Positions 8,768-19,168 are shown, counted from the stretch's first letter. The stretch is 32,000 nucleotides of DNA from Alkanindiges illinoisensis DSM 15370 (GCF_000619845.1 NZ_KK211037.1:60001-92000), one strand, 5' to 3'. The notes: generated by a model not told the origin, from the sequence alone. A program made the numbers and translations.

Positions 8768-9139
8768 ATGGCAGCGCGACCAGCATTTTCACAGCAGCAG
8801 TGGGTAGGGATCAATTATGGCCTGATGTTACTGTCGCTACTTTTAGGGGTTGGCGTACTGATTGCGCTATGGAGCAGTCATCACTTTTTAAACCAGAGTC
8901 AGGATGTCTGGTTGCGCTCCCATCATTTGTGGATCATGCGCAGTTGTGTGGGCCTACTGGGTTTATTGCTCATCAATAGCCTGTTTTTTATTCCCTTGTT
9001 TTGGCTGCCCGTGACGCAGGGCATTGGCTATTATTGTTGGCTGGCTGGGGTAGGGTTTGCTGCCTTAATCTGGCTATGGTTTTTGTATCGTAGCGTTAAA
9101 GGATTACAGGCATTTATAAAAGCTAAATCGGTGTATTGA
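8768..9139 (+). CDS. Small integral membrane protein, function unknown
   Basis: 123 aa with 3-4 hydrophobic segments. A GGAAAAGGAA purine tract lies upstream of the ATG. I do not recognise the family. Confidence 0.55.
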   Translation: MAARPAFSQQQWVGINYGLMLLSLLLGVGVLIALWSSHHFLNQSQDVWLRSHHLWIMRSCVGLLGLLLINSLFFIPLFWLPVTQGIGYYCWLAGVGFAALIWLWFLYRSVKGLQAFIKAKSVY

Positions 9140-9250
9140 TGGTGGAGCAAAGATGGGATTGAAATTTCAGTAAAATATTTGGATTTAGTTTGTACCACTG
9201 AATATTATAACTCCAATAAACTAATTCTTAAGAGTTTTTAGGGAAGTGTA

Positions 9251-9967
9251 ATGAGTATAGAAAAATTTCAATTTCCATCACGAGGTTTTCACATAGTTGC
9301 GACGAAAGTTGGTGAAGCAGATTACTTTCTTGAAAAATTAAAAGAGGTACAAGGTCATTACGATGAATTTTCTTATATTTTGAGCGCTTTTGTTTCAGCC
9401 TCAAGAAGTATCACTTTTGCACTTCAATCTGTTATGACTAAATATCCTGAATTTGATGAGTGGTATATCACTCATCAAGAAAAACTCAAAGCCAATGGCC
9501 TTGCAAAGTATTTTGTAAGCCTTCGTAATTATATGCAAAAGGTTGGTCAAGTCCCAGTGGGTCATACTGGAACAATAAGAAATGGTAAGATTGAATATTT
9601 TTCCTTTTTTATAGATATAGATGACTTAAAAAATGCCCCAAATGGAGAGGTGATCAATCTAGCTGAAGATTATTTTGTTGAAGTTTTGAGAGTTGTCGAA
9701 AGTTGCTATAGGGATTTTTGGGTATATACTGATCCACGTGCGATCTTTACTGAGGACGGCCTAAAATTGCTTGGCTGGGTTATAGAGGATATTGAGGAGG
9801 CCGTTGGCCTCCCTAGAGGATATACTGATATTCCTTATGATAATGAAGACAAGAATTTACAAAGATTACGGCTTTTGGCTCGTGAGTTTCAAGGTGACGA
9901 GATGATGGAGCAGTACTTTATGAAATATGAATTACAGTTGAATCTTAATAAAAATTATAATTCCTAA
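9251..9967 (+). CDS. Hypothetical cytoplasmic protein (orphan) in an AT-rich islet
   Basis: 238-aa uninterrupted ORF with an AGGGAAG Shine-Dalgarno 5 nt upstream. Local GC is about 33-36% by eye, against about 50% in the flanking DNA. It has no signal peptide, no TM segment and no motif I recognise. Confidence 0.6.
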   Translation: MSIEKFQFPSRGFHIVATKVGEADYFLEKLKEVQGHYDEFSYILSAFVSASRSITFALQSVMTKYPEFDEWYITHQEKLKANGLAKYFVSLRNYMQKVGQVPVGHTGTIRNGKIEYFSFFIDIDDLKNAPNGEVINLAEDYFVEVLRVVESCYRDFWVYTDPRAIFTEDGLKLLGWVIEDIEEAVGLPRGYTDIPYDNEDKNLQRLRLLAREFQGDEMMEQYFMKYELQLNLNKNYNS

Positions 9968-10043
9968 TTTAAATATACTTATATGTTTGTTGGTAAATAT
10001 GATGACAAGCTATCTAAAATTTGGGAGTAGTTAAGAAACCAGT

Positions 10044-10081
10044 GAGTCAGGCCAAAGCTAATTTCAACTCCAGCCTGACTC
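10044..10081. terminator. Inverted repeat GAGTCAGGC-N20-GCCTGACTC between convergent genes
   Basis: Perfect 9-bp arms, read directly from the sequence. It lies between the 3' ends of the 9251-9967 ORF (+) and the dehydrogenase (-). The loop is long and there is no clear U-tract, so terminator function is tentative. Confidence 0.35.
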
Positions 10082-10111
10082 AATACCATCAAAAAACTAT
10101 AATGATGTTGT

Positions 10112-11446
10112 TTACCTTGGCGACACGCGCCACACCACATCACCCACATCATCGGCTACTAGGATCGCGCCCGCCTTGTCTACCGTAACGCCAACCGGAC
10201 GACCCAGCGCATCACCGTTTTCATTGACAAAGCCACTAAGCACATCTTGCGGTTTACCCGCTGGTTGACCATTTTGAAATGGCACAAAAATCACCTTGTA
10301 GCCACTGCGCGGTTTGCGATTCCACGAGCCATGCTGGCCAATCAATACGCCATTTTTATATTGAGGCATTAAATCAGCCTTATAAAAGCTTAAGCCCAAG
10401 GATGCGGTATGGTTGCCCAGTGCATAATCCGGTTTAAGGGCCTTGGCAACCAGATCCGGATTTTGCGGTTTTACCCGGGCATCCACATGCTGGCCATAGT
10501 AGCTATAGGGCCAGCCATAAAACGCCCCATCCTTAACCGAGGTCATATAGTCCGGTACCAGATCGCTGCCAATTTCGTCACGTTCATTCACTGCAGTCCA
10601 GAGTGCCCCGGTTTGCGGTTGCCAGTCCATGCCATTGGGATTGCGCAATCCGGTGGCAAAAGGACGTACCTTGCCACTGGCAATATCAAATTCCGGAATG
10701 CGCGCGCGATCCTGTTCCTTGTCCAGCCCGTTTTCAGCGGCATTGCTGTTGGAACCCACCGTAATGTAGAGCTTGCTGCCATCGGCACTGGCAATCACAT
10801 TTTTGGTCCAGTGATGGTTAATTGGCCCGGCCGGTAAATTCAGTACTTTGGTGCCCGCGGTCTGAATACTGGTTGCACCCGGGGTATAATCAAAGCGCAT
10901 CAGGCTATCAGTATTGGCGATATAGAGTGCGTTACCGACCAGTGTCATGCCAAAGGGCGAGTTCAGGTTTTTCAAAAATACGGTGTGCTGGTCGGCAACT
11001 CCATCGCCATTGGTATCACGCAGCAGGCTAATCTGGTTGGCACTGGGATGGGATGAACCCGCGCGTTTCATCACCAGTGTCATGATTTTGCCTTTAATGC
11101 CCTTGCTGTCTTCCGGCTTGGGCGGTGCATCGGTTTCAGCCACCAGCACGTCACCATTAGGCAGTACATACAGCCAGCGCGGATGAATCAGGCCACCCGC
11201 AAATTTTTGTACTTTTAATCCACTGGCTGCAACGGGCATGGTATTGGCAGGCCAACCCTTGGCTGGTGCAATATGTACTGTGGGGAGCAGGCTTTTCTGC
11301 GGCGCGGGCAGTACCGGATTAGCGCCATAGCTGGCATCAATCGGTAGGTTGGCTTTGTGGCCGCAGCCGGTCAGGCACAGTAGCCCTGCACTGGCCAGTA
11401 TGGAAAATTTCACGGAAATAGACATTGGGTGAACTCCAGTCAGCAT
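10112..11446 (-). CDS. PQQ-dependent sugar (glucose/sorbosone-type) dehydrogenase family lipoprotein
   Basis: Motifs typical of the beta-propeller GSDH family: GLRNPNGMDWQPQTGALWTAVNERDEIGSDLVPDYMT...GAFYGWPYSYYG. Lipobox LCLTGC. The likely true start is the ATG at 11425 (MSISVKF...). Confidence 0.8.
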   Translation of the reverse strand: MLTGVHPMSISVKFSILASAGLLCLTGCGHKANLPIDASYGANPVLPAPQKSLLPTVHIAPAKGWPANTMPVAASGLKVQKFAGGLIHPRWLYVLPNGDVLVAETDAPPKPEDSKGIKGKIMTLVMKRAGSSHPSANQISLLRDTNGDGVADQHTVFLKNLNSPFGMTLVGNALYIANTDSLMRFDYTPGATSIQTAGTKVLNLPAGPINHHWTKNVIASADGSKLYITVGSNSNAAENGLDKEQDRARIPEFDIASGKVRPFATGLRNPNGMDWQPQTGALWTAVNERDEIGSDLVPDYMTSVKDGAFYGWPYSYYGQHVDARVKPQNPDLVAKALKPDYALGNHTASLGLSFYKADLMPQYKNGVLIGQHGSWNRKPRSGYKVIFVPFQNGQPAGKPQDVLSGFVNENGDALGRPVGVTVDKAGAILVADDVGDVVWRVSPR

Positions 11447-11708: not shown

Positions 11709-11737
11709 CTTGCAAAAACACCACATTGCCCCAAGAT
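11709..11737 (+). promoter_or_regulatory. Sigma-32 (heat-shock) type promoter for dnaJ
   Basis: CTTGCAA (11709-11715), a 13-nt spacer, then CCCCAAGAT (11729-11737). The E. coli sigma-32 consensus is CTTGAAA-N13-15-CCCCATNT. It lies about 40 nt upstream of dnaJ. Confidence 0.5.
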
Positions 11738-11773
11738 TAGCCGCAATTGTTTAATTGATTTTGGTTAGGAGTT

Positions 11774-12892
11774 ATGCCAGCCATGGCAAAGAGAGACTAC
11801 TACGAGGTTTTAGGGTTATCCAAAGGTGCAGGCGAGGACGAAATTAAAAAGGCCTATCGCAAGCTGGCCATGAAATATCATCCGGACCGTAATCCTGATA
11901 ACAAGGAAGCTGAGGAAAAATTCAAGGAAGCTTCAGAAGCCTATGAAGTCTTGTCCGATAGCGACAAGCGTTCTGCCTATGACCGCATGGGACACAGTGC
12001 CTTTGAAGGCATGGGTGGCTTTGGCGGTGGCGGCGGCTTTAACGCGCAGGATATCTTTAGCCAGTTTGGTGATATTTTTGGCGATATGTTTGGTGGCCGT
12101 GCGGGCGGTGGCCAACGTCAGCGCCGTGGGGCAGACCTGCGTTATGTGCTGGAATTGACCCTGGAAGAAGCAGTTAAGGGCGTGAAAAAAACCATCAGCT
12201 TTACGGCACCAGCGGCCTGTGAAGCCTGTAATGGCAAAGGTTCCAAAAATCCGGAAGATGTCACTACCTGCCAGACCTGTCATGGTTCGGGTCAGGTGCG
12301 CATGCAGCAGGGTTTCTTTTCAGTTCAGCAAACCTGTCATACCTGTCAGGGCCGTGGCAAGATTGTCAAAAATCCGTGTAATGTCTGCCATGGCGCGGGT
12401 GTGGCTGAACGCAAGCGCACACTGGAAGTCAGTATTCCAGCCGGGGTGGATAACGGTGACCGCGTTCGCCTGACCGGTGAAGGCGAAGCGGGTGGTGCTG
12501 GTGTTCAGCCTGGCGATTTGTATGTAGAAGTGGTGGTGCGCGAGCATGCCGTATTCCAGCGTGATGGTGCCGATTTGTACATGGATGTGCCCATTAGCTT
12601 TACCGATGCAGCACTGGGCAAGGAAGTGGAAATTCCAACGCTTGATGGTCGTGTGAGCCTGAAAATTCCTGAAGGCACCCAGACTGGCAAGCTGTTCCGT
12701 CTGCGCGGCAAGGGTGTAAAACCGGTACGTACCAGTATGGTGGGTGATTTACTGTGCCGTGTGGTGGTGGAAACTCCGGTGAATCTAACCAGCCGCCAGA
12801 AAGAACTGTTACAGGAACTGCAAGCCACACTGGATGGTGATGACAAGCAATCGCCCAAGAAAAAGTCATTTTTTGAGCGCCTGTTTGACTGA
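11774..12892 (+). CDS. dnaJ: Molecular chaperone DnaJ (Hsp40)
   Basis: J domain ([34 protein letters not shown]), G/F-rich linker, four CxxCxGxG zinc-finger repeats and a C-terminal substrate-binding domain. The likely start is the ATG at 11783 (MAKRDYYE). Confidence 0.97.
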
Positions 12893-12946
12893 CCAAGCCA
12901 TGAAGCGATAGTCCTTATCGCGATTATTGTGACGTGTATAAATGCG

Positions 12947-12975
12947 AAAAGCCCATCTTACTAGATGGGCTTTTT
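12947..12975 (+). terminator. Rho-independent terminator of dnaJ
   Basis: Stem GCCCATCT (12951-12958), loop TACT, stem AGATGGGC (12963-12970), followed by TTTTT and preceded by AAAA. Confidence 0.75.
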
Positions 12976-13089
12976 GATATGTGGTCGGTTCAGGCAACAA
13001 ATAACCTGAGCATGACTAATCTGGGGGCAGATTGAATCGTCAGACAATAAAAATTATGATAGGCCAAATAAAATTGATTTTATAAGAAT

Positions 13090-14193
13090 ATGTCACCACA
13101 CATTCGCCTGAACATGATTGTCAAAAATGAAGCTGCGGTGATCCTGCGCTGTCTTGCTTCGGTCAAGCCGTGGATTAATTCCTGGGTTATTGTCGATACG
13201 GGTTCCAGTGATGGCACACAGGACATGATTCGGCAGTATATGCAGGATCTGCCGGGACAATTGTTTGAACGTTCCTGGAAAAATTTTGGCCATAACCGCA
13301 GCGAAGCCCTAGAACTGGCGCTCACTGATGAGTTGCCCCCTGCGGATTATTTATTGTTTATTGATGCAGACGAAACCCTGCTGGTGGCTGAGCAGTTTCG
13401 CTATCCTGAACTGGACGGCACAGCTTACTATTTTGAATGCCTGTACGATCACATATGCTATCAGCGCAATGCGCTGGTTTCTACGCGGCTGCCTTGGCGC
13501 TGGAAAGGAGTATTGCACGAATATCTGGATTCGCCCATGCCGCATCAGTGGCAAACGCTGGAAGGGCTCCGTATTTTTGTACAGCACGACAGCGCCCGTG
13601 GCAAGGACGCAACCACTTACCTTAAAGATATTGCCTTGCTACAGCAGGGAATTCAGGATGAGCCGGACAATTTGCGCTACCAGTTTTATCTGGCACAAAG
13701 CTATCAGGATGCGGGGATGCTGGACGCGGCCTTGCAGGCTTATCAGCAGCGTGCCAGTGCCGCTGGCTGGGAAGAGGAACGCTGGATGGCCCAGTTTCGT
13801 GCGGCCCAGTTAACCGAGCGCTTAAACTATCCCATTGAACAAGTGTATCTGGCTTATTTGCAGGCATGGATCAGTCGGCAGCAACGTGCTGAGCCTTTGT
13901 ATGAACTGGCACGTTTTTATCGTGAACGGCAATTGTATGACACTGCCTGCTATTTTGCTCAGCAAGCGGTTAATATTACCCAGCCGGATGACCTGTTATT
14001 TGTCGACCATAGCGTGTATGCATGGCGGGCACTTGATGAACTCAGTGTATCGGCCACCTACTGCGCGCCTTATAAGCAAGCAGGCCAAGTTGCCATGTCA
14101 CAACTCATTCAGCAACAAAAATTTCCTCCTAGTGAAAAAGCGAGAATTGAAGCCAATAGGATGTTCTATGATTTGGACGCGCATCTGGTTTAA
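13090..14193 (+). CDS. Family-2 glycosyltransferase with a C-terminal helical-repeat (TPR-like) domain
   Basis: The N-terminal GT-A fold signature is LNMIVKNEAAVILRCLASVKPWINSWVIVDTGSSDGT...FGHNRSEALELA...LLFIDADE (DxD motif). The C-terminal half is a helical repeat (YQFYLAQSYQDAGMLDAALQAYQQR...LYELARFYRERQLYDTACYFAQQA). Confidence 0.8.
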   Translation: MSPHIRLNMIVKNEAAVILRCLASVKPWINSWVIVDTGSSDGTQDMIRQYMQDLPGQLFERSWKNFGHNRSEALELALTDELPPADYLLFIDADETLLVAEQFRYPELDGTAYYFECLYDHICYQRNALVSTRLPWRWKGVLHEYLDSPMPHQWQTLEGLRIFVQHDSARGKDATTYLKDIALLQQGIQDEPDNLRYQFYLAQSYQDAGMLDAALQAYQQRASAAGWEEERWMAQFRAAQLTERLNYPIEQVYLAYLQAWISRQQRAEPLYELARFYRERQLYDTACYFAQQAVNITQPDDLLFVDHSVYAWRALDELSVSATYCAPYKQAGQVAMSQLIQQQKFPPSEKARIEANRMFYDLDAHLV

Positions 14194-14229
14194 GTTGAAT
14201 GATTAATAGAATAGAGAATGATCCCAATA

Positions 14230-14258
14230 AACAACCTGATTTTTAACATCAGGCTGTT
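14230..14258. terminator. Hairpin between the convergent glycosyltransferase and tail-collar genes (possible bidirectional terminator)
   Basis: AACAACCTGAT / loop TTTTAAC / ATCAGGCTGTT gives an 11-bp stem with one mismatch. There are T-rich runs on both strands. Confidence 0.55.
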
Positions 14259-14278
14259 TGCATGGATGAGGCAGTAGA

Positions 14279-14875
14279 TTAAGGACGTGATGGATAGATA
14301 CCATTAATACAAATAATATAATTGAGTGCCAGATAGGGATTGCTGGCATCAAACGGCTGACTGCCGCCCACAATGCCTGTTGTACCTGAATTTAACTGCG
14401 CCGCAATATTGGCTTGTATCGGTTTCATGTTGGCAAGCTGGGTGGTATCTGGCGTGTAGCTATTTAAGGTATTGATGCCATCATTAACATTGGCCCATAC
14501 CGCATTCGTGGGATCAGTGGTTGTACCGTTGCCCGAGCTACCTTGCGGCTGTATGGTGGCAGTCGCGGTAACTTGCTGTGCATCCAGTGAATGCGCGTGA
14601 GCAGGCAAATTGGCAAGCGTTAAACTAATATTTCGGCTACCGCCCTGACCACCCAGGGGAAACTGATTGTTGTCAACACCCACAATGGCGCGGCCATTTA
14701 AGTTGGGCAGGGCAAAGGTGGTTTGTCCATTGCCCCCATAAGTGGTGCCTAACAGTGAAAACAACGCGGTATATTGTGAAATGGAGAGGAGTTGTCCGTT
14801 GCATGACATCCATCCCTGTGGGGCGAAGTCAAAGGCCACCACGCTGATTTCTCCAACAAATGATTCCAGAGCCAT
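14279..14875 (-). CDS. Phage tail collar domain protein (MdpB / 'microcystin-dependent protein' family)
   Basis: 198 aa. FVGEISVVAFDFAPQGWMSCNGQLLSISQYTALFSLLGTTYGGNGQTTFALPNLNGR plus the C-terminal NPYLALNYIICINGIYPSR are the canonical conserved blocks of this family. There is no signal peptide. Confidence 0.9.
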   Translation of the reverse strand: MALESFVGEISVVAFDFAPQGWMSCNGQLLSISQYTALFSLLGTTYGGNGQTTFALPNLNGRAIVGVDNNQFPLGGQGGSRNISLTLANLPAHAHSLDAQQVTATATIQPQGSSGNGTTTDPTNAVWANVNDGINTLNSYTPDTTQLANMKPIQANIAAQLNSGTTGIVGGSQPFDASNPYLALNYIICINGIYPSRP

Positions 14876-14945
14876 ATTATTTTTCCCTAATAGATTTGAT
14901 TAAAATTAGAGTGGTATTTTGATCCACAGTCGAATTAAAGCGATT

Positions 14946-15287
14946 CTAGACAGGGTCGGCTATACCTAAAACATCGTATTTTTTGTGCAGTAGATTGAGC
15001 TTTTTATGAATGGTTTTGCGATGACTGTACACGGTTGCAATGCTGATATTCAATTGAAAGGCAATCTGTTGACTCCCTTGTCCTTCAGTCATCAGCAGCA
15101 CAATGCTTTTTTCACGTTCGGTTAAACTGGCCAAAAATTCAGGGTAGTATGAGGCGTATTTCAGCAGGCAGGCTTTATGGTGGATATTGAGCTTTTTATA
15201 AATATTTTCTTGATGGGTAGTGACAGTTCGTTCGCTGATATATAGTTTTTCGGCAATTTGTTTGATTAAAAAACCATCAGCGCGCAT
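14946..15287 (-). CDS. Small protein made of two tandem LuxR/GerE-type HTH domains. The first domain is N-terminally incomplete as annotated.
   Basis: Domain 2 is complete: LTEREKSIVLLMTEGQGSQQIAFQLNISIATVYSHRKTIHKKLNL. Domain 1 (ADGFLIKQIAEKLYISERTVTTHQENIYKKLNI) lacks its first helix. The gene is AT-rich, about 38% GC by eye. Confidence 0.75.
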   Translation of the reverse strand: MRADGFLIKQIAEKLYISERTVTTHQENIYKKLNIHHKACLLKYASYYPEFLASLTEREKSIVLLMTEGQGSQQIAFQLNISIATVYSHRKTIHKKLNLLHKKYDVLGIADPV

Positions 15288-15336
15288 TTAAAAAAATTTT
15301 TCGCTCACGTCGGGTTAACGTTGCTAGTATTGTCAT
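15277..15336 (-). pseudogene. 19-codon fragment encoding the missing first helix of LuxR HTH domain 1, out of frame with the CDS at 14946-15287
   Basis: Minus-strand ATG at 15336 gives MTILATLTRRERKIFLNAR*. LTRRERKIFL is the canonical start of a GerE domain (compare LTEREKSIVLL in domain 2). Removing one A from the minus-strand AAATG (plus-strand TTT at 15287-15289) fuses the two frames to LTRRERKIFLMRADGFLIKQIAEKL, which aligns without gaps to domain 2. Confidence 0.55.
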
Positions 15337-15356
15337 GGCATTGTTCTCAACCTGAT

Positions 15357-15387
15357 CAGTCCGCAGGCTGTAAAAGCCGGCGGACTG
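15357..15387 (-). terminator. GC-rich hairpin between the collagen-like gene and the HTH gene
   Basis: CAGTCCGCAGGC / loop TGTAAAA / GCCGGCGGACTG gives a 12-bp stem with one mismatch. No U-tract follows on the minus strand, so it may be a partial terminator or an RNA-stabilising element rather than a full terminator. Confidence 0.45.
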
Positions 15388-15419
15388 AGGCTTAACGGAT
15401 GAATTAAACCGGCTGATCC

Positions 15420-18080
15420 TTATTTGATGCGGGTGATGGACAGATGGGTCGTGCCGTTGGTTGAGGTAAAGGCCGCAGTTGTGTTACTCCATGACTGTGC
15501 TCTGAAACGCACGGTATTACCGTTGTCCAGATACATCATACAGTTAATCTTGGTGCTATTTCTGAGGCCTGCATTTGCGCCATTGGTATATTGATCATAG
15601 GTGCTAATACAGATCGGCGTACCGGCCTGATTAACATCCAGATAATGCGCAATGCCGATAATGGTTTCTCCGCCGGTATTGGTAACACCCATCACTTGCG
15701 TAGAAAACTGATACCAGCCTGCACCTGTACCACCTACGGTAAAGGTCGTGCCATTCCAGCTATTGCCACCAGTCAGACTGGCGCGGATGTTATTTGAGCC
15801 ACTAAAAAACAAGGTATCAAAATTTGCTGTGCCACTTAAGCTGCTGATCTGCTGACTGCTGTTGTTGGCAATGTTCAACTCTACATTGGGATAAGCACTA
15901 ACGGCACTGCTGATGTTAACGCCGCTGCCCCAGCTCCCATTGGATTTGGTATAGATCAAGCCGGAACCCGTCTGGATATAAAGGTCACCATTACTACCGG
16001 TAGCGTTGGATGGTGCCGTTGATCCCGAAAATACGACTGTGCCACTGTTACCAGTTGCCCCGGTGGCGCCCGTTACACCTGTTGCGCCTGTAGCTCCGGT
16101 AACGCCTTGCGCACCTGTGGCTCCGGTTGCACCAGTAACACCTTGAGAACCTGTAGCGCCAGTTGCACCCGTTGCGCCGGTAACACCTTGTGCGCCCGTA
16201 GCTCCAGTTGCCCCTGTCAGCGCAATAGAAATAGACCAGCCTGCTGCAGACTTTGGTCCATACAGTCGGGCATTGGTGGTGTCAATATAAAAATCACCCA
16301 CCGCGCCAACAGCCAGTGAAGGGGCGCCACTGCCATTTAAGATAGTATTACCATTGCTGCCAGCCGCCCCAGTGGCACCTGTAACACCTTGCGCCCCTGT
16401 AGCTCCGGTAACACCTTGTGCACCCGTTGCCCCTGTGATACCGCTAGCACCTTGCGCACCGGTAGCACCCGTAATGCCTGTGGCTCCGGTAGCACCCGTT
16501 GCACCATTAGCGCCAGCTGCGCCTTGTAAAGATACCCCTATGCTTGGCCAGCCTGTAACAGTTTTTGGCCCATAAAAGACTGAATTCACAGTATCGATAT
16601 AAAAATCACCAACATTGCCCTGAGTGGTGGGTGCTCCGTTACCATTGAGAATAATATTACCATTGCTGCCGGCCAACCCGGTTGCCCCAGTGGCTCCCGT
16701 TGCACCCGTAACGCCTTGAGCACCCGTTGTCCCTGTCGCCCCAGTTATGCCAGTGGCTCCAGTTGCACCTTGTGACCCTGTGGCACCTGCCGCCCCTTGA
16801 GAACCTACCAGTGAAATGCCAAGGCTTGGCCATACCCCATTGGCTTTAGGGCCATAAAAACGGCTGGTTGTGGTATCAATATAAAAATCACCATCCAGTC
16901 CCAGAGTTGCGGCTGGAGCGCCTGAGCCATTAAGTACGGCATTACCACGCATACCCTGCTGGCCTGTAGCACCCGTCGCCCCTGTGGCGCCCGGTTGACC
17001 AGTTGCTCCGGTTGCACCCACCAGAGAAGTTGATGCGCCCCAGCCGTTGATGGTCTTGGCGGCATATAGTCGTCCGTTACTTATATCAATATAGGTATCG
17101 CCAACATTACCAAGGGTTGAGGAAGGTGCGCCTGACCCGCTAATGATAGAAAACCCTATAATACCTTGCTGGCCTGTTGCCCCGGTGGCGCCCGTTACAC
17201 CCGTTGCGCCTGTCACTCCGGTTGCCCCTTGCGCACCTGTAGCTCCCGTTGCACCGGTAACGCCTTGAGAACCTGTAGCGCCTTGTGCGCCCGTGGCACC
17301 AGTCGCACCGGTAATGCCTTGAGAACCCGTTGCTCCTGTAGCTCCAGTTACACCGATTGCCCCAGTCGCACCCGTAACGCCTTGTGCGCCAGTGGCTCCG
17401 GTTACGCCTTGCGCACCAGTTGCACCCGTAATACCTGTGGCTCCGGTTGCACCAGTTACACCCTGTGCACCGGTTGCGCCAGTCGTACCGTTGGCGCCAG
17501 TTGCCCCAGCCGCGCCGCTAGCGCCTTGTTGGCCTGTAGCACCCGTTGCTCCTGTAGCGCCTTGTGCACCGGTAGCACCCGTTGCCCCTGTAGCACCGTG
17601 CTGGCCTGTGGCGCCTGCCGGGCCAATCAGTGAAATACCCGTATTTGGCCAACCTGCTGCTGTTTTTGGGCCATAAAGGACTACATTACTCACATCAATA
17701 TAAAAATCGCCAGGCTTTCCAGCAGTTGCCAGCGGTGCGCCAGAACCATTGATTACACTATAGCCATCGCTGCCATTCAGGCCAGCTGTTCCCACCAGTG
17801 AAACCCCTATGGCAGGCCAGGTACGATTCTTTTTAGGGCCATATAAAACATAGGCATTGGTATCAATATAAAAGCTACCGTCTATACCATTTTGTGCAGT
17901 AGGCATGCCTGCCCCGCTGCTGACTGAGTTAACGAGCGTAGTGGTTACAATCGTTTCTGTGGTTTTATCCGATCCGCCACATGCTGACAATGCCAGCATT
18001 GTGCCCAGAATGACGACACTTAGAGTGTTTTTTTGCAGTTTTTTAGAGGATGTATACATCGCGGGATGGATCATATTCAT
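15420..18080 (-). CDS. Collagen-like triple-helix-repeat lipoprotein with seven interspersed 'YID' modules and a C1q/BclA-like C-terminal globular domain
   Basis: 886 aa with a GGAAG Shine-Dalgarno before the ATG. The lipoprotein signal is MLALSAC, with Cys34. By hand count there are six G-X-Y runs totalling about 115-120 triplets, dominated by GAT, GAQ and GVT. Seven copies of G[DS]xYI[DQ]-x5-[LF]Y-x-[PA]K-x4-W separate the runs. The last ~155 aa ([18 protein letters not shown]...[16 protein letters not shown]...HLSITRIK) show the pattern of a C1q/TNF-like jelly roll. Confidence 0.9.
16041..17624 (-). repeat. Coding tandem repeats with 9-nt periodicity (G-X-Y triplets) in five blocks. The largest block is about 17157-17624.
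   Basis: GGY-GCN-ACN type units repeat with many near-identical 9-, 18- and 27-nt copies. The same periodicity creates long spurious ORFs on the opposite strand. Confidence 0.9.
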
Positions 18081-18146
18081 TTTTTACTTCCAGCGTTATT
18101 TTTTAAAAATTTTAGCTATTTATTTAATACGAGGGATTCATAATTG

Positions 18147-18162
18147 TATACAGTTCTGTATA
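18147..18162. promoter_or_regulatory. 7-2-7 dyad TATACAG-TT-CTGTATA in the AT-rich region upstream of the collagen-like gene
   Basis: Perfect 7-bp inverted arms with a 2-bp spacer, about 70 nt upstream of the ATG at 18080. The dyad lies in a 275-bp AT-rich intergenic region shared with divergent dapB. Confidence 0.35.
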
Positions 18163-18355
18163 TATAGTTACATATTTTTATATTTTGCATTACTGCTGTT
18201 ACATTATTTGCTACAGTTCAGGCAATCGGCACCCGATAGAATAAGCAGTTATTGCGTAACCTGCTACGTTAAGCACATTGCAGGGTAAAAGGGTCTGATA
18301 GTCAGTGGACTGGCTTGGTTTTGGATTAATTAACGCTAAATATTGAGGAGCAGGC

Positions 18356-19168
18356 ATGGCAACTTCACCACGCATTGGGATTTTGGGCGCAGGTGGCCGC
18401 ATGGGCCGCATGTTGATTCAGGCAGTGCATCAGGCAGGCTATCCGCTTGCTGCGGCAGTCGAGCGCCCCGGCAGTTCACTGATTGGCACCGATGCGGGTG
18501 AACTGGCAGGCGTAGGCAAGCTGGACGTACAGGTGGCCGCCAGTCTGCAAGATATAATTAACCAGTGTGATGTGGTGATTGATTTTTCCACGCCACAAGC
18601 CACTGAAACCCACTTGCAGATTTGCCGTGATGCAAAGGTTGCTATTGTCATTGGCACCACGGGCTTATCTGAGGCACAAAAGCAGCTGGTCAGCGACACG
18701 GCACAGCATATTCCGGTGGTGTATTCCGGCAACTACTCGGTGGGCGTGAATGTCTCGCTTAAAATGCTGGAACTGGCGGCCAAAGCCTTTGGTGAAACGG
18801 TGGATATTGAAATCATTGAAGCCCATCACCGCCATAAAGTGGATGCACCATCCGGCACCGCCTACATGATGGGTGAAACCGTGGCTAATGCGCTGGGCCG
18901 TAACCTCAAAGACGTTGCGGTTTATGGACGTGAAGGTCATACTGGGCCGCGCGAGCGCCAGACCATTGGTTTTGAAACCATTCGGGGTGGCGATATTGTG
19001 GGTGAACACACGGTGATGTTTATTGGTGAAGGCGAGCGGGTTGAGGTCAAGCATCTGGCCACCAACCGCATGAACTTTGCCAGTGGTGCAGTGCGTGCCG
19101 CGGCATGGGTGATCCAGCAGCCAGTAGCCCGTTATGACATGCAGGATGTATTGTCATTAAAAAATTAA
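18356..19168 (+). CDS. dapB: 4-hydroxy-tetrahydrodipicolinate reductase
   Basis: [17 protein letters not shown] (NAD(P)H-binding motif) and [15 protein letters not shown] (the conserved DapB catalytic motif). 270 aa. Confidence 0.97.

Follow-up and report, generated by a model that had tools for sequence, protein, structure and literature searches.

The 32 kb window of Alkanindiges illinoisensis DSM 15370 analysed here (all positions are counted from its first letter) carries a four-gene island between dnaJ and dapB, and we consider it probable, from the gene content and its recurrence elsewhere, that this island encodes a threonine-rich, collagen-like, trimeric surface fibre together with an enzyme that glycosylates this same fibre. 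The gene order is a GT2 glycosyltransferase with a tetratricopeptide repeat (TPR)-like C-terminal half on the plus strand, followed on the minus strand by a free-standing tail-collar protein (Collar), a tandem GerE protein with two LuxR-type helix-turn-helix (HTH) domains and a collagen-like lipoprotein (Table 1). A preliminary description of the stretch had already taken these genes for a possible glycosylated and lipid-anchored surface filament of an undescribed kind, and this interpretation is partly supported by the present analysis. The positions that it gave for the open reading frames (ORFs) were correct in all six cases, and profile searches with the Glycos_transf_2, Collar, GerE and Collagen models matched all four proteins.

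In our reading the 886-aa protein would be exported by the Sec route and lipidated at Cys34, would trimerise through its TNF/C1q-like head and its seven knot modules, and would form a segmented G-A-T triple helix of about 100 nm, anchored by the lipid at the N-terminus and with the head pointing outward. The GT2-TPR enzyme would O-glycosylate Thr (or Ser) within the G-x-T triplets in the cytoplasm, before export, by analogy with SgtA acting on BclA3. A second unit would provide the tandem LuxR-type HTH protein and then a free tail-collar trimer. The first of these would be a local transcription factor, whose production may be gated by recoding or translational coupling at ATTTTTTTAA, and the Collar protein would be an accessory subunit or an alternative head associated with the fibre.

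The collagen-like lipoprotein and the glycosyltransferase

Residues 1-34 of the lipoprotein, as read from the translation, are a signal peptide ending in the lipobox L-S-A-C. The N-terminus is of the lipoprotein type and not an exosporium-targeting sequence, and the host belongs to the Moraxellaceae. The protein contains a total of 123 Gly-X-Y (GXY) triplets; Ala occupies X in 76 of them and Thr occupies Y in 77, and Pro is nearly absent. Blocks of 53, 9, 17, 20 and 20 triplets alternate with the knot modules, seven segments of ~43 aa each with the pattern G..GDFYID.....YGPK...GW. Taking the standard triple-helix rise of 0.286 nm per residue, the length of the helix is estimated at ~105 nm. 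The NCBIfam models of the adhesins Lcl, SclA and SclB align to the repeat region, all of them with scores below the equivalog cut-offs (140.8 vs 500 bits for Lcl, 129.2 vs 325 for SclB and 120.6 vs 400 for SclA).

The last 160 residues were modelled with AlphaFold2 (AF2) on a shallow alignment (pLDDT 74, pTM 0.73), and the head is predicted to have a TNF/C1q-like fold, in agreement with the C1q-like head that had been suggested earlier. Searched with Foldseek against the PDB, the model matched, at probability 1.0 and TM ~0.7, 4-1BBL, EDA, LIGHT, C1QL1/3 and a domain of the short tail fibre of cyanophage A-1(L), and against BFVD it matched viral entries named "collagen-like protein with C1q domain". 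The Pfam C1q model gave no match to the head. Sequence homologues of the head are few, and those with 40-47% identity carry a precomputed PF26696 (PTL_trimer) annotation; our Pfam scan found no PF26696 match to the head, but the same scan also missed P0124, a precomputed carrier of this domain. In Bacteroidota, head homologues with PF26696 are found as tandem triplets of secreted ~250-320-aa proteins beside two-component systems (L179 8114-10870; L180 10001-12732), an arrangement that mirrors the tandem triplets of Collar genes described below.

The GT2 enzyme shows, in addition to the Pfam match given in Table 1, a match to Glyco_tranf_2_4 (1.9e-7) and a DXD motif in FIDADE, of which IDADE aligns with that of GmaR. 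No signal peptide was found in the protein. In its second half TPR_12, TPR_2 and TPR_17 match residues 172-220 with E = 5e-4 to 8e-3, under the Pfam cut-offs, and NCBI gives homologues with 67-68% identity the name "tetratricopeptide repeat-containing glycosyltransferase". By sequence, the closest relatives with a solved structure were GmaR, SunS and the ThuS-like entry 7msk (6.5e-7 to 1.2e-2), with a similarity that is low and confined to the N-terminal 100-200 residues of the enzyme. SunS, a peptide S-glycosyltransferase by its NCBIfam name, was also the best NCBIfam match, at 29 bits vs a cut-off of 350, what places the window enzyme outside the SunS family. GmaR glycosylates the flagellin of Listeria, and GmaR, SunS and ThuS all combine a GT-A domain with TPRs and act in the cytoplasm as glycosyltransferases of proteins or peptides, with substrates other than the one proposed for the GT2 of the window.

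Evidence on the probable acceptor comes from the neighbourhood of the enzyme. We surveyed 16 contexts of GT2 homologues for neighbours with runs of GXY triplets, and such a neighbour was present in 12 of them. The partner is a lipoprotein in the window lineage (window, L081 and L084; 78-93% identity of the GT homologue), an 889-aa trimeric autotransporter with ESPR, YadA stalk and repeats in L086 (67%), a giant RTX adhesin both in Acinetobacter indicus L094 (66%, with GAT runs) and in L096 (69%, with 17 short GXY runs), a 361-aa secreted protein with ~36 triplets in Delftia L098 (55%), a CBM96 + Collagen protein in the metagenome contig L102 (37%), a tail fibre with GPT repeats located 3.7 kb off in the jumbo phage Tunturi_5, L181 (38%), collagen-like lipoproteins in Cupriavidus L182, L183 and L185 (41-56%), an 805-aa Collagen + Hint_2 protein in Methylobacterium L186 (39%) and a DUF4347 + Collagen protein in Mesorhizobium L187 (33%). 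As a control, ORFs with at least six consecutive GXY triplets were searched for in 80 dnaJ-dapB loci (1.5 Mb) and none was found. Thr was the commonest Y residue in 10 of the 12 collagen-like partners. Furthermore, these partners are exported by different routes, as lipoproteins (window, L182), as a trimeric autotransporter with ESPR (L086), as RTX proteins (L094, L096) or by Sec (L098, L102). The only compartment shared by the four routes is the cytoplasm, in which an enzyme without a signal peptide would act.

The GT2-TPR protein could also act on a glycan or lipid, such as lipooligosaccharide (LOS), capsule or exopolysaccharide, its adjacency to the collagen-like gene reflecting nothing else than a shared role in the envelope. 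GT2 is indeed mostly a family of polysaccharide-synthesising enzymes, some phage homologues are annotated as "beta-1,4-glycosyltransferase" or "LOS glucosyltransferase", and the TPR matches fall under the Pfam cut-offs. We nevertheless find this explanation quite improbable, since the nearest solved relatives modify flagellin (GmaR) or peptides (SunS and the ThuS-like entry), the block has no other sugar-pathway genes and is not a polysaccharide cluster, and the link with Thr-rich GXY proteins spans four export routes and 12 lineages.

Some of these contexts had features of their own. In the Tunturiibacter jumbo phage Tunturi_5 (L181 5998-13014) four paralogous ~285-aa genes lie between the GT2-TPR homologue and the tail-fibre gene, and from this locus phages may also glycosylate collagen-like fibres with the same enzyme family. 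The Methylobacterium partner (L186 3186-5603) ends in Hint_2, an intein or hedgehog-like autoprocessing domain, and in Mesorhizobium (L187 2682-5483) the GT2 homologue is fused into a 933-aa protein annotated as GT25. In the Citrobacter plasmid pRHBSTW-01013_3 (L188 2909-7185) a 32%-identical GT2-TPR homologue is located directly downstream of a classical autotransporter, and the same gene is found on Enterobacter and E. coli plasmids. These plasmids are conjugative and also carry IS26 and an ars operon, and the two genes may represent an adhesin paired with its glycosyltransferase on a plasmid.

The Collar protein and the tandem GerE regulator

The Collar domain is located at the extreme N-terminus of its protein, which has a C-terminal IIxxxGIYPSRP motif, the combination that characterizes the MdpB/COG4675 family. 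This is a very large family (>8000 matches). In our alignments (A1 and A4) the motif NYIICxxGIYPSRP was conserved, with Y181, I188, G192, P195 and R197 invariant or near-invariant. By sequence the protein also matches the long tail fibre of cyanophage A-1(L), 8kec (6.9e-7). Foldseek searches with the AF2 monomer retrieved nothing usable (pTM 0.37; best match E = 0.09), as would be expected of an intertwined trimer.

The Collar gene is single-copy in the window, L081, L084, L086, L088, L099 and L102, instead of forming the usual tandem of three paralogues. We also scanned metagenomes with the Collar alignment and obtained 80 loci, with relatives at 37-49% identity among the matches listed, so that this is a survey of neighbourhoods and not of close relatives; tandem Collar pairs or triplets predominate in them. 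In six lineages (window, L086, L088, L102, L148 and L186) Collar adjoins a collagen-like gene, and in L102, L148 and L186 it follows it. Actually, the families of the island are found together repeatedly in unrelated bacteria, a co-occurrence that the preliminary description had required for its interpretation to hold. The same four genes are present beside dnaJ in L081 and L084, the four families coincide at another chromosomal site in L086, and the trio of collagen-like protein, Collar and GT2-TPR occurs in L102 and L186. The order in L102, all on one strand, is collagen-like protein, Collar, a GNAT acetyltransferase and GT2-TPR.

In Cupriavidus L182 and L185 the two parts are fused. The gene divergent from GT2 codes there for one lipoprotein with 44-46 GXY triplets (GATGATG...) and a C-terminal Collar domain. 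In L182 this fusion matches both Pfam Collagen (1.7e-19) and Collar (1.6e-14), and it is similar by BLASTP to the Collar of the window (48% identity over 40 aa plus the C-terminal motif), whereas in L185 the Collar domain was detected as a tblastn match inside the collagen-like ORF. We take this fusion as the strongest evidence that Collar domains would work with such stalks outside the cytoplasm.

Two other types of Collar neighbourhood are worth describing. In L086 (4798-8178) three extra genes separate Collar from the collagen-repeat autotransporter; one codes for a 319-aa protein without matches, one for a secreted tyrosinase (Pfam Tyrosinase) and one for a cupin-like protein of 286 aa, which hints at an oxidative cross-linking or modification of the fibre. 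MdpB-type Collar genes also adjoin very large proteins (~1,200 to >2,600 aa) in Shewanella, Burkholderia, Hymenobacter and Deinococcus (L092, L192, L193 and L194); Deinococcus has a tandem triplet of Collar genes and each of the other three a single one. Several of these giants are evident surface proteins (cadherin/Ig-like, DUF4347), two of the neighbours in Hymenobacter and Deinococcus are annotated only as hypothetical, and no collagen repeats were found in the giant neighbours of these four loci. Such a pairing of Collar with giant adhesins may be general.

The GerE gene is located 70 nt upstream of Collar on the same strand, and this pair, GerE and then Collar, is kept in six lineages (window, L081, L084, L086, L088 and L099). 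The protein has two HTH domains and nothing else (113 aa, ~129 aa if recoded); no receiver or autoinducer/ligand-binding domain was found in it. The four-helix GerE HTH could be recognized, the first HTH being complete only when an upstream short ORF is joined to the main one. The gene as first read is 5'-incomplete, because helix 1 (the "LTxRE" helix) sits upstream in another frame. The same split of the first HTH was found in all six lineages, with proteins only 38-88% identical. The junction ATTTTTTTAA..ATG, written ATTTTTTTA(ATT)AATG, is invariant at the nucleotide level, the codons flanking it vary synonymously (CGA, CGT, AGA; GAG, GAA), and a 3-nt insertion at this point in L086 preserves the relation of the two frames. 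Conservation of the junction stretch is 88-92% vs 76-86% in the surrounding coding sequence. In the four most divergent lineages a purine-rich stretch resembling a Shine-Dalgarno sequence precedes the short ORF and not the main ATG, most clearly in L086 and L088. Tandem GerE homologues in a single frame do occur, such as P0273 (LTDRQRTIFFELLKG), and their spacing fits a product reading ...IFL and then MRADG....

As to how the two frames could be read, transcriptional slippage on the T7 run was ruled out because TAA directly follows the run in the +1 frame, and a -1 shift on U UUU UUA was rejected as leading to a dead-end frame. The mechanisms that remain as candidates are a shift by +1, or a hop, past the UUA codon and a termination with reinitiation, which would give two polypeptides, and the ATTTTTTTAA junction is a candidate site of programmed recoding in a LuxR-family regulator. 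No description of a frameshifted LuxR regulator was found in the literature searched, and tblastn of the tandem GerE protein against plasmids gave no match.

Several observations weigh against the reading proposed above. A strong hairpin (15349..15392) splits the collagen-like gene from GerE-Collar, so that co-transcription 18080 -> 14279 may occur but is uncertain; a hairpin-forming sequence of other composition was seen by eye at the same place in L081 and L084. No signal peptide was found in the Collar protein. Its relatives within the family mostly form tandem triplets or adjoin giant surface proteins without collagen repeats, and the Acinetobacter loci with GT2 and an adhesin have neither Collar nor a tandem GerE gene. 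Nothing in the window accounts for the lipoprotein reaching the cell surface. In addition, the TPR assignment rests on the sub-threshold Pfam matches and on the names given to homologues, and 4 of the 16 GT2 contexts have no collagen-like neighbour (a Bacillus replicon at 35% and three homologues at <=32%, one of which adjoins a classical autotransporter).

The hairpin, the signal-less Collar, the Acinetobacter loci and the prevalence of MdpB-type Collar genes in triplets or beside non-collagen proteins would also fit two unrelated modules lying side by side, one formed by GT2 and the lipoprotein and the other by LuxR and Collar with a separate function, intracellular or of another unrelated kind, like RhiR-RhiB or MrpB. 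There is a precedent for the second in Rhizobium leguminosarum, where the rhiABC operon, which has the LuxR-family gene rhiR at its flank, encodes the Collar-domain protein RhiB (PMC13133039). Such a juxtaposition seems unlikely to us given the adjacency of Collar and collagen-like genes in six divergent lineages and the fusion of both domains, in Cupriavidus, within one exported lipoprotein beside the same glycosyltransferase family. Furthermore, in the three GerE-Collar lineages with enough flanking DNA (window, L086 and L088) a collagen-repeat surface protein was the neighbour in all three, in L088 an autotransporter, divergently transcribed, which reaches a GDKGDKGDKGDVGAT run at the end of the contig. 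A single system of fibre, enzyme, Collar partner and regulator remains the reading that we prefer.

The island between dnaJ and dapB

The earlier claim of an insertion into a conserved junction was borne out by the alignment of this interval across relatives. A DapB scan provided 80 Moraxellaceae loci (Alkanindiges, Acinetobacter and Aquirhabdus) as comparison set. A dnaJ match was found in 75 of them, directly upstream of dapB in 74 of these 75; L040 is an exception, a short fragment with room upstream in which the dnaJ match is absent. The gap between both genes is mostly 120-270 bp, reaching ~0.5-1.9 kb in about 20 loci, and none of the 80 contained homologues of the four block genes. The closest locus is that of Alkanindiges illinoisensis (DapB 98% and DnaJ 99% identical), in which 237 bp occupy the place of window positions 12889-18345, with both flanks syntenic at ~91% nucleotide identity. 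Homology with the relatives having the empty site picks up again at 18343-18346, just before dapB. The existence of empty sites makes the block an island within a conserved dnaJ-dapB junction.

The four-gene arrangement directly beside dnaJ was also found in two lineages of greater divergence, L081 and L084, with Collar identities of 81% and 70% respectively, and the window and L081 are colinear over 11709-16217 at ~80% nucleotide identity. The synonymous divergence (dS) of the block genes was 0.7-1.3 in most comparisons, similar to that of the flanking dnaJ and GSDH (1.1); the dS of Collar and GerE in L084 was higher and is probably saturated. The ratio of non-synonymous to synonymous divergence (dN/dS) was 0.05-0.16 across all four genes, with 0.055-0.099 for GT2 and 0.08-0.14 for Collar. 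A dS like that of the flanks together with a low dN/dS indicates that the island has been resident for long and is under selection, and this purifying selection argues that its genes are functional. By these comparisons the island is old and variably retained, and neither strain-specific nor a recent insertion. Its absence in A. illinoisensis, which is nearer to the window than L081, points to repeated loss or to spread by recombination.

A perfect 10-bp direct repeat, GTTCAGGCAA, brackets the island, and the empty site of Alkanindiges sp. WGS2144 (L006, about 9900) has a single similar copy, GTTCAGGCCA, just after the dnaJ terminator. The repeat may be the footprint of the insertion or an excision substrate, although it is statistically marginal and no more than suggestive because the chance expectation is about 0.03-0.06 (our own calculation).

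The preliminary description had noted that its idea would fall if the genes were a phage remnant. The case for a decayed prophage tail-fibre module, in which a collagen-like tail fibre and a collar-domain fibre would be left beside a phage glycosyltransferase and a regulator without a working cellular system, starts from the parts themselves, since Collar, collagen repeats and C1q-like heads are typical of phage fibres. Collar matches many PHROG tail families, GT2 matches phrog_13126 at 8e-31, the head fold matches the fibre heads of phages and giant viruses, and Tunturi_5 has its GT2 homologue 3.7 kb from the GPT-repeat tail-fibre gene. The parts of the block do resemble phage and giant-virus fibres in fold and design. 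However, no phage structural, lysis or integrase genes were found among the neighbours scanned in the 32 kb, nor any tRNA gene in the window. The best phage match to Collar had 34% identity in INPHARED and 37% in IMG/VR, compared with 44-55% for cellular homologues, and the lipoprotein head had no match in the phage collections searched. All four genes are under strong purifying selection, the same site has been kept across lineages at dS ~1, and the fibre protein bears a bacterial lipoprotein signal. From phage identity, neighbours and dN/dS together we conclude that the block is not a prophage remnant, a decayed module being highly improbable. A PADLOC search gave no defence-system match besides a generic HTH.

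That dnaJ would have its own terminator, as had been proposed, was confirmed by RNA folding (z = -6.2), which revealed a hairpin missed by the consensus terminator scan. Between the convergent GT2 and Collar genes, a second hairpin is followed by UUGUUUAUU on the minus strand and is less stable on the plus strand (-11.1 kcal/mol, z = -2.8); it is the probable terminator of the minus-strand unit. A consensus promoter scan was uninformative (8 sites vs 9.9 expected), and the search for operator-like motifs common to the four upstream regions produced nothing convincing besides the 10-bp direct repeat at the island edges.

Other window genes examined are housekeeping, for example those for an RND efflux pump, an alcohol dehydrogenase, MutY, an M23 peptidase and a dienelactone hydrolase. 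A second segment specific to this strain with regard to A. illinoisensis was found at 9034-10117 (705 bp at that site in the latter), where GC falls to ~35%. It contains a 238-aa ORF (9251-9967) without Pfam, PHROG or PADLOC match.

Table 1 Features of the dnaJ-dapB island and its flanks in the window
Feature	Position	Strand	Evidence or remarks
dnaJ, left flank of the island	11774..12892	+	Pfam DnaJ, DnaJ_C, DnaJ_CXXCXGXG; NCBIfam PRK10767 2.9e-172; protein 99% identical to A. illinoisensis
Intrinsic terminator hairpin of dnaJ (A-tract, 14-bp stem, U-tract)	12945..12976	+	-22.7 kcal/mol, z = -6.2, 0/200 shuffles as stable
Left copy of the perfect 10-bp direct repeat GTTCAGGCAA bracketing the island	12988..12997	+	Sequence match to right copy
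GT2 (GT-A) glycosyltransferase, 367 aa, TPR-like C-terminal half	13090..14193	+	Pfam Glycos_transf_2 4.7e-11
Hairpin between convergent GT2 and Collar	14229..14259		Minus strand -18.8 kcal/mol, z = -5.05, then UUGUUUAUU
Free-standing tail-collar protein, MdpB/COG4675 type, 198 aa, single copy	14279..14875	-	Pfam Collar 8.7e-28, residues 8-64
Tandem GerE/LuxR HTH main ORF, 113 aa	14946..15287	-	Pfam GerE 1.8e-27, two stretches
Upstream short ORF MTILATLTRRERKIFLNAR*, encoding helix 1 of the first GerE	15277..15336	-	Main ORF in +1 frame relative to the short ORF
Candidate recoding junction ATTTTTTTAAATG	15285-15297	-	Invariant in six lineages
Strong hairpin between collagen-like stop and short ORF, no U-tract	15349..15392	-	-26.3 kcal/mol, z = -4.7
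Collagen-like lipoprotein, 886 aa	15420..18080	-	Pfam Collagen 7.8e-51, seven stretches; lipobox LSAC, Cys34
C-terminal head, aa 726-886, predicted TNF/C1q-like jelly roll of PTL_trimer (PF26696) type	15423..15905	-	AF2, Foldseek
Collagen-like region, aa 153-682	16035..17624	-	GXY blocks and knot modules
Right copy of the 10-bp direct repeat GTTCAGGCAA	18216..18225	+	Sequence match to left copy
dapB, right flank of the island	18356..19168	+	Pfam DapB_N, DapB_C; TIGR00036 1.2e-92

Known systems and significance

The closest known analogue is the pair SgtA-BclA3 of Clostridioides difficile. SgtA is a protein of 358 aa with a GT-A domain and four TPRs, it is encoded immediately upstream of bclA3, and it modifies Thr within the BclA3 collagen repeats with beta-O-linked N-acetylglucosamine (beta-O-GlcNAc; PMC7157674). 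By analogy, the block can be read as a Gram-negative variant of this pair. The enzymes are of similar size (367 vs 358 aa), both begin with a GT-A domain, followed by TPRs in SgtA and by a TPR-like half in the window enzyme, and both are adjacent to a collagen-like gene with Thr in G-x-T triplets, an adjacency found in the window and in 11 other contexts. This likeness is one of size, layout and gene adjacency. The product of SgtA-BclA3 is a hair-like surface projection, and that of the block would be similar. The differences are also clear. The host is Gram-negative and does not form spores, the fibre has an N-terminal lipoprotein signal instead of exosporium targeting, its triplets are of the G-A-T and not of the G-P-T type and nearly free of proline, seven knots interrupt the helix, and the island also codes for a tandem LuxR regulator and a free Collar protein.

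A similar architecture is that of the exosporium filament BclA of Bacillus anthracis, which is collagen-like, has a C-terminal domain of the TNF/C1q type and is glycosylated in its collagen region. Both share the Thr-rich collagen-like stalk and the C-terminal trimerising TNF/C1q-like head (predicted here), but the window protein has no spore or exosporium-targeting N-terminus, would bear a lipid anchor, and its head is probably of the PTL_trimer (PF26696) type. Scl1/Scl2 of Streptococcus and Lcl of Legionella are likewise surface proteins with collagen repeats, with different anchors and heads, and we know of no dedicated glycosyltransferase adjacent to them. The proposed order of events follows the same logic as in the Sec- or T5SS-exported adhesins of AIDA-I/Aah, TibA/TibC and HMW1/HMW1C, in which a soluble cytoplasmic glycosyltransferase encoded beside the adhesin gene modifies the adhesin before export, although the enzyme families (heptosyltransferase or HMW1C vs GT2-TPR) and the acceptor motifs differ.

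Another comparison is with the rhi and mrp genes, the closest precedents described for the Collar and regulator genes. MrpB is the Microcystis counterpart of RhiB, and the SPINDLY family of O-glycosyltransferases carries TPR repeats. The neighbouring MrpC, a surface glycoprotein of Microcystis, has been proposed as the target of a SPINDLY-family O-glycosyltransferase (PMC2442094). Taken together, rhiABC-rhiR and mrpAB(C) resemble the island in combining a regulator, a collar protein, a surface glycoprotein and a TPR glycosyltransferase. On the other hand, the island has no RhiA or RhiC homologues, its tandem HTH protein lacks an autoinducer domain, its putative glycoprotein is collagen-like and its enzyme belongs to GT2 and not to GT41.

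No cellular system made of a collagen-like and a tail-collar protein, with or without GT2-TPR, was found described in the literature searched. The earlier claim of an undescribed system stands for the Gram-negative host, for anchors that are interchangeable, for a free-standing Collar partner and for the unusual regulator, but not for the pairing of a GT-A + TPR enzyme with a collagen-like protein, already known from SgtA-BclA3 (PMC7157674). As judged from the loci compared, the gene kit recurs in many Gram-negative bacteria and seems to have gone undescribed so far. A wider generalization is possible but rather doubtful at present. Under it, Proteobacteria would have widespread and unrecognised Thr-rich collagen fibres that depend on cytoplasmic O-glycosylation by dedicated GT2-TPR enzymes. 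Their anchors (lipoprotein, trimeric autotransporter, RTX, Sec) would be interchangeable, and their heads (TNF/C1q-like, Collar, Hint, CBM96) as well. A sub-class would have a free phage-type Collar trimer as partner of the fibre, with its expression gated by a LuxR-type regulator whose first HTH is completed only by a programmed +1 recoding at ATTTTTTTAA-ATG.

A collagen helix without hydroxyproline can be stabilised when Thr in position Y is glycosylated, as in the cuticle collagen of Riftia, and such a stabilisation would suit the stalk of the window because it has almost no proline. If our reading is true, proline-poor bacterial collagens would be predicted to be stabilised by Thr glycosylation. 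Glycosylated collagen-like filaments have been well studied only on the spores of Firmicutes (BclA, and BclA3 with SgtA), and the results presented here suggest that the same logic of a GT-A + TPR enzyme and G-x-T triplets is common in Gram-negatives, grafted on lipoproteins, trimeric autotransporters and giant RTX adhesins. The GT2-TPR gene would then be a simple genomic marker for a family of adhesins or matrix fibres, including some in Acinetobacter, Cupriavidus and Delftia. A candidate recoding site in a transcription factor would be added, and the large and functionally blank MdpB "tail collar" family would gain its first testable partner.

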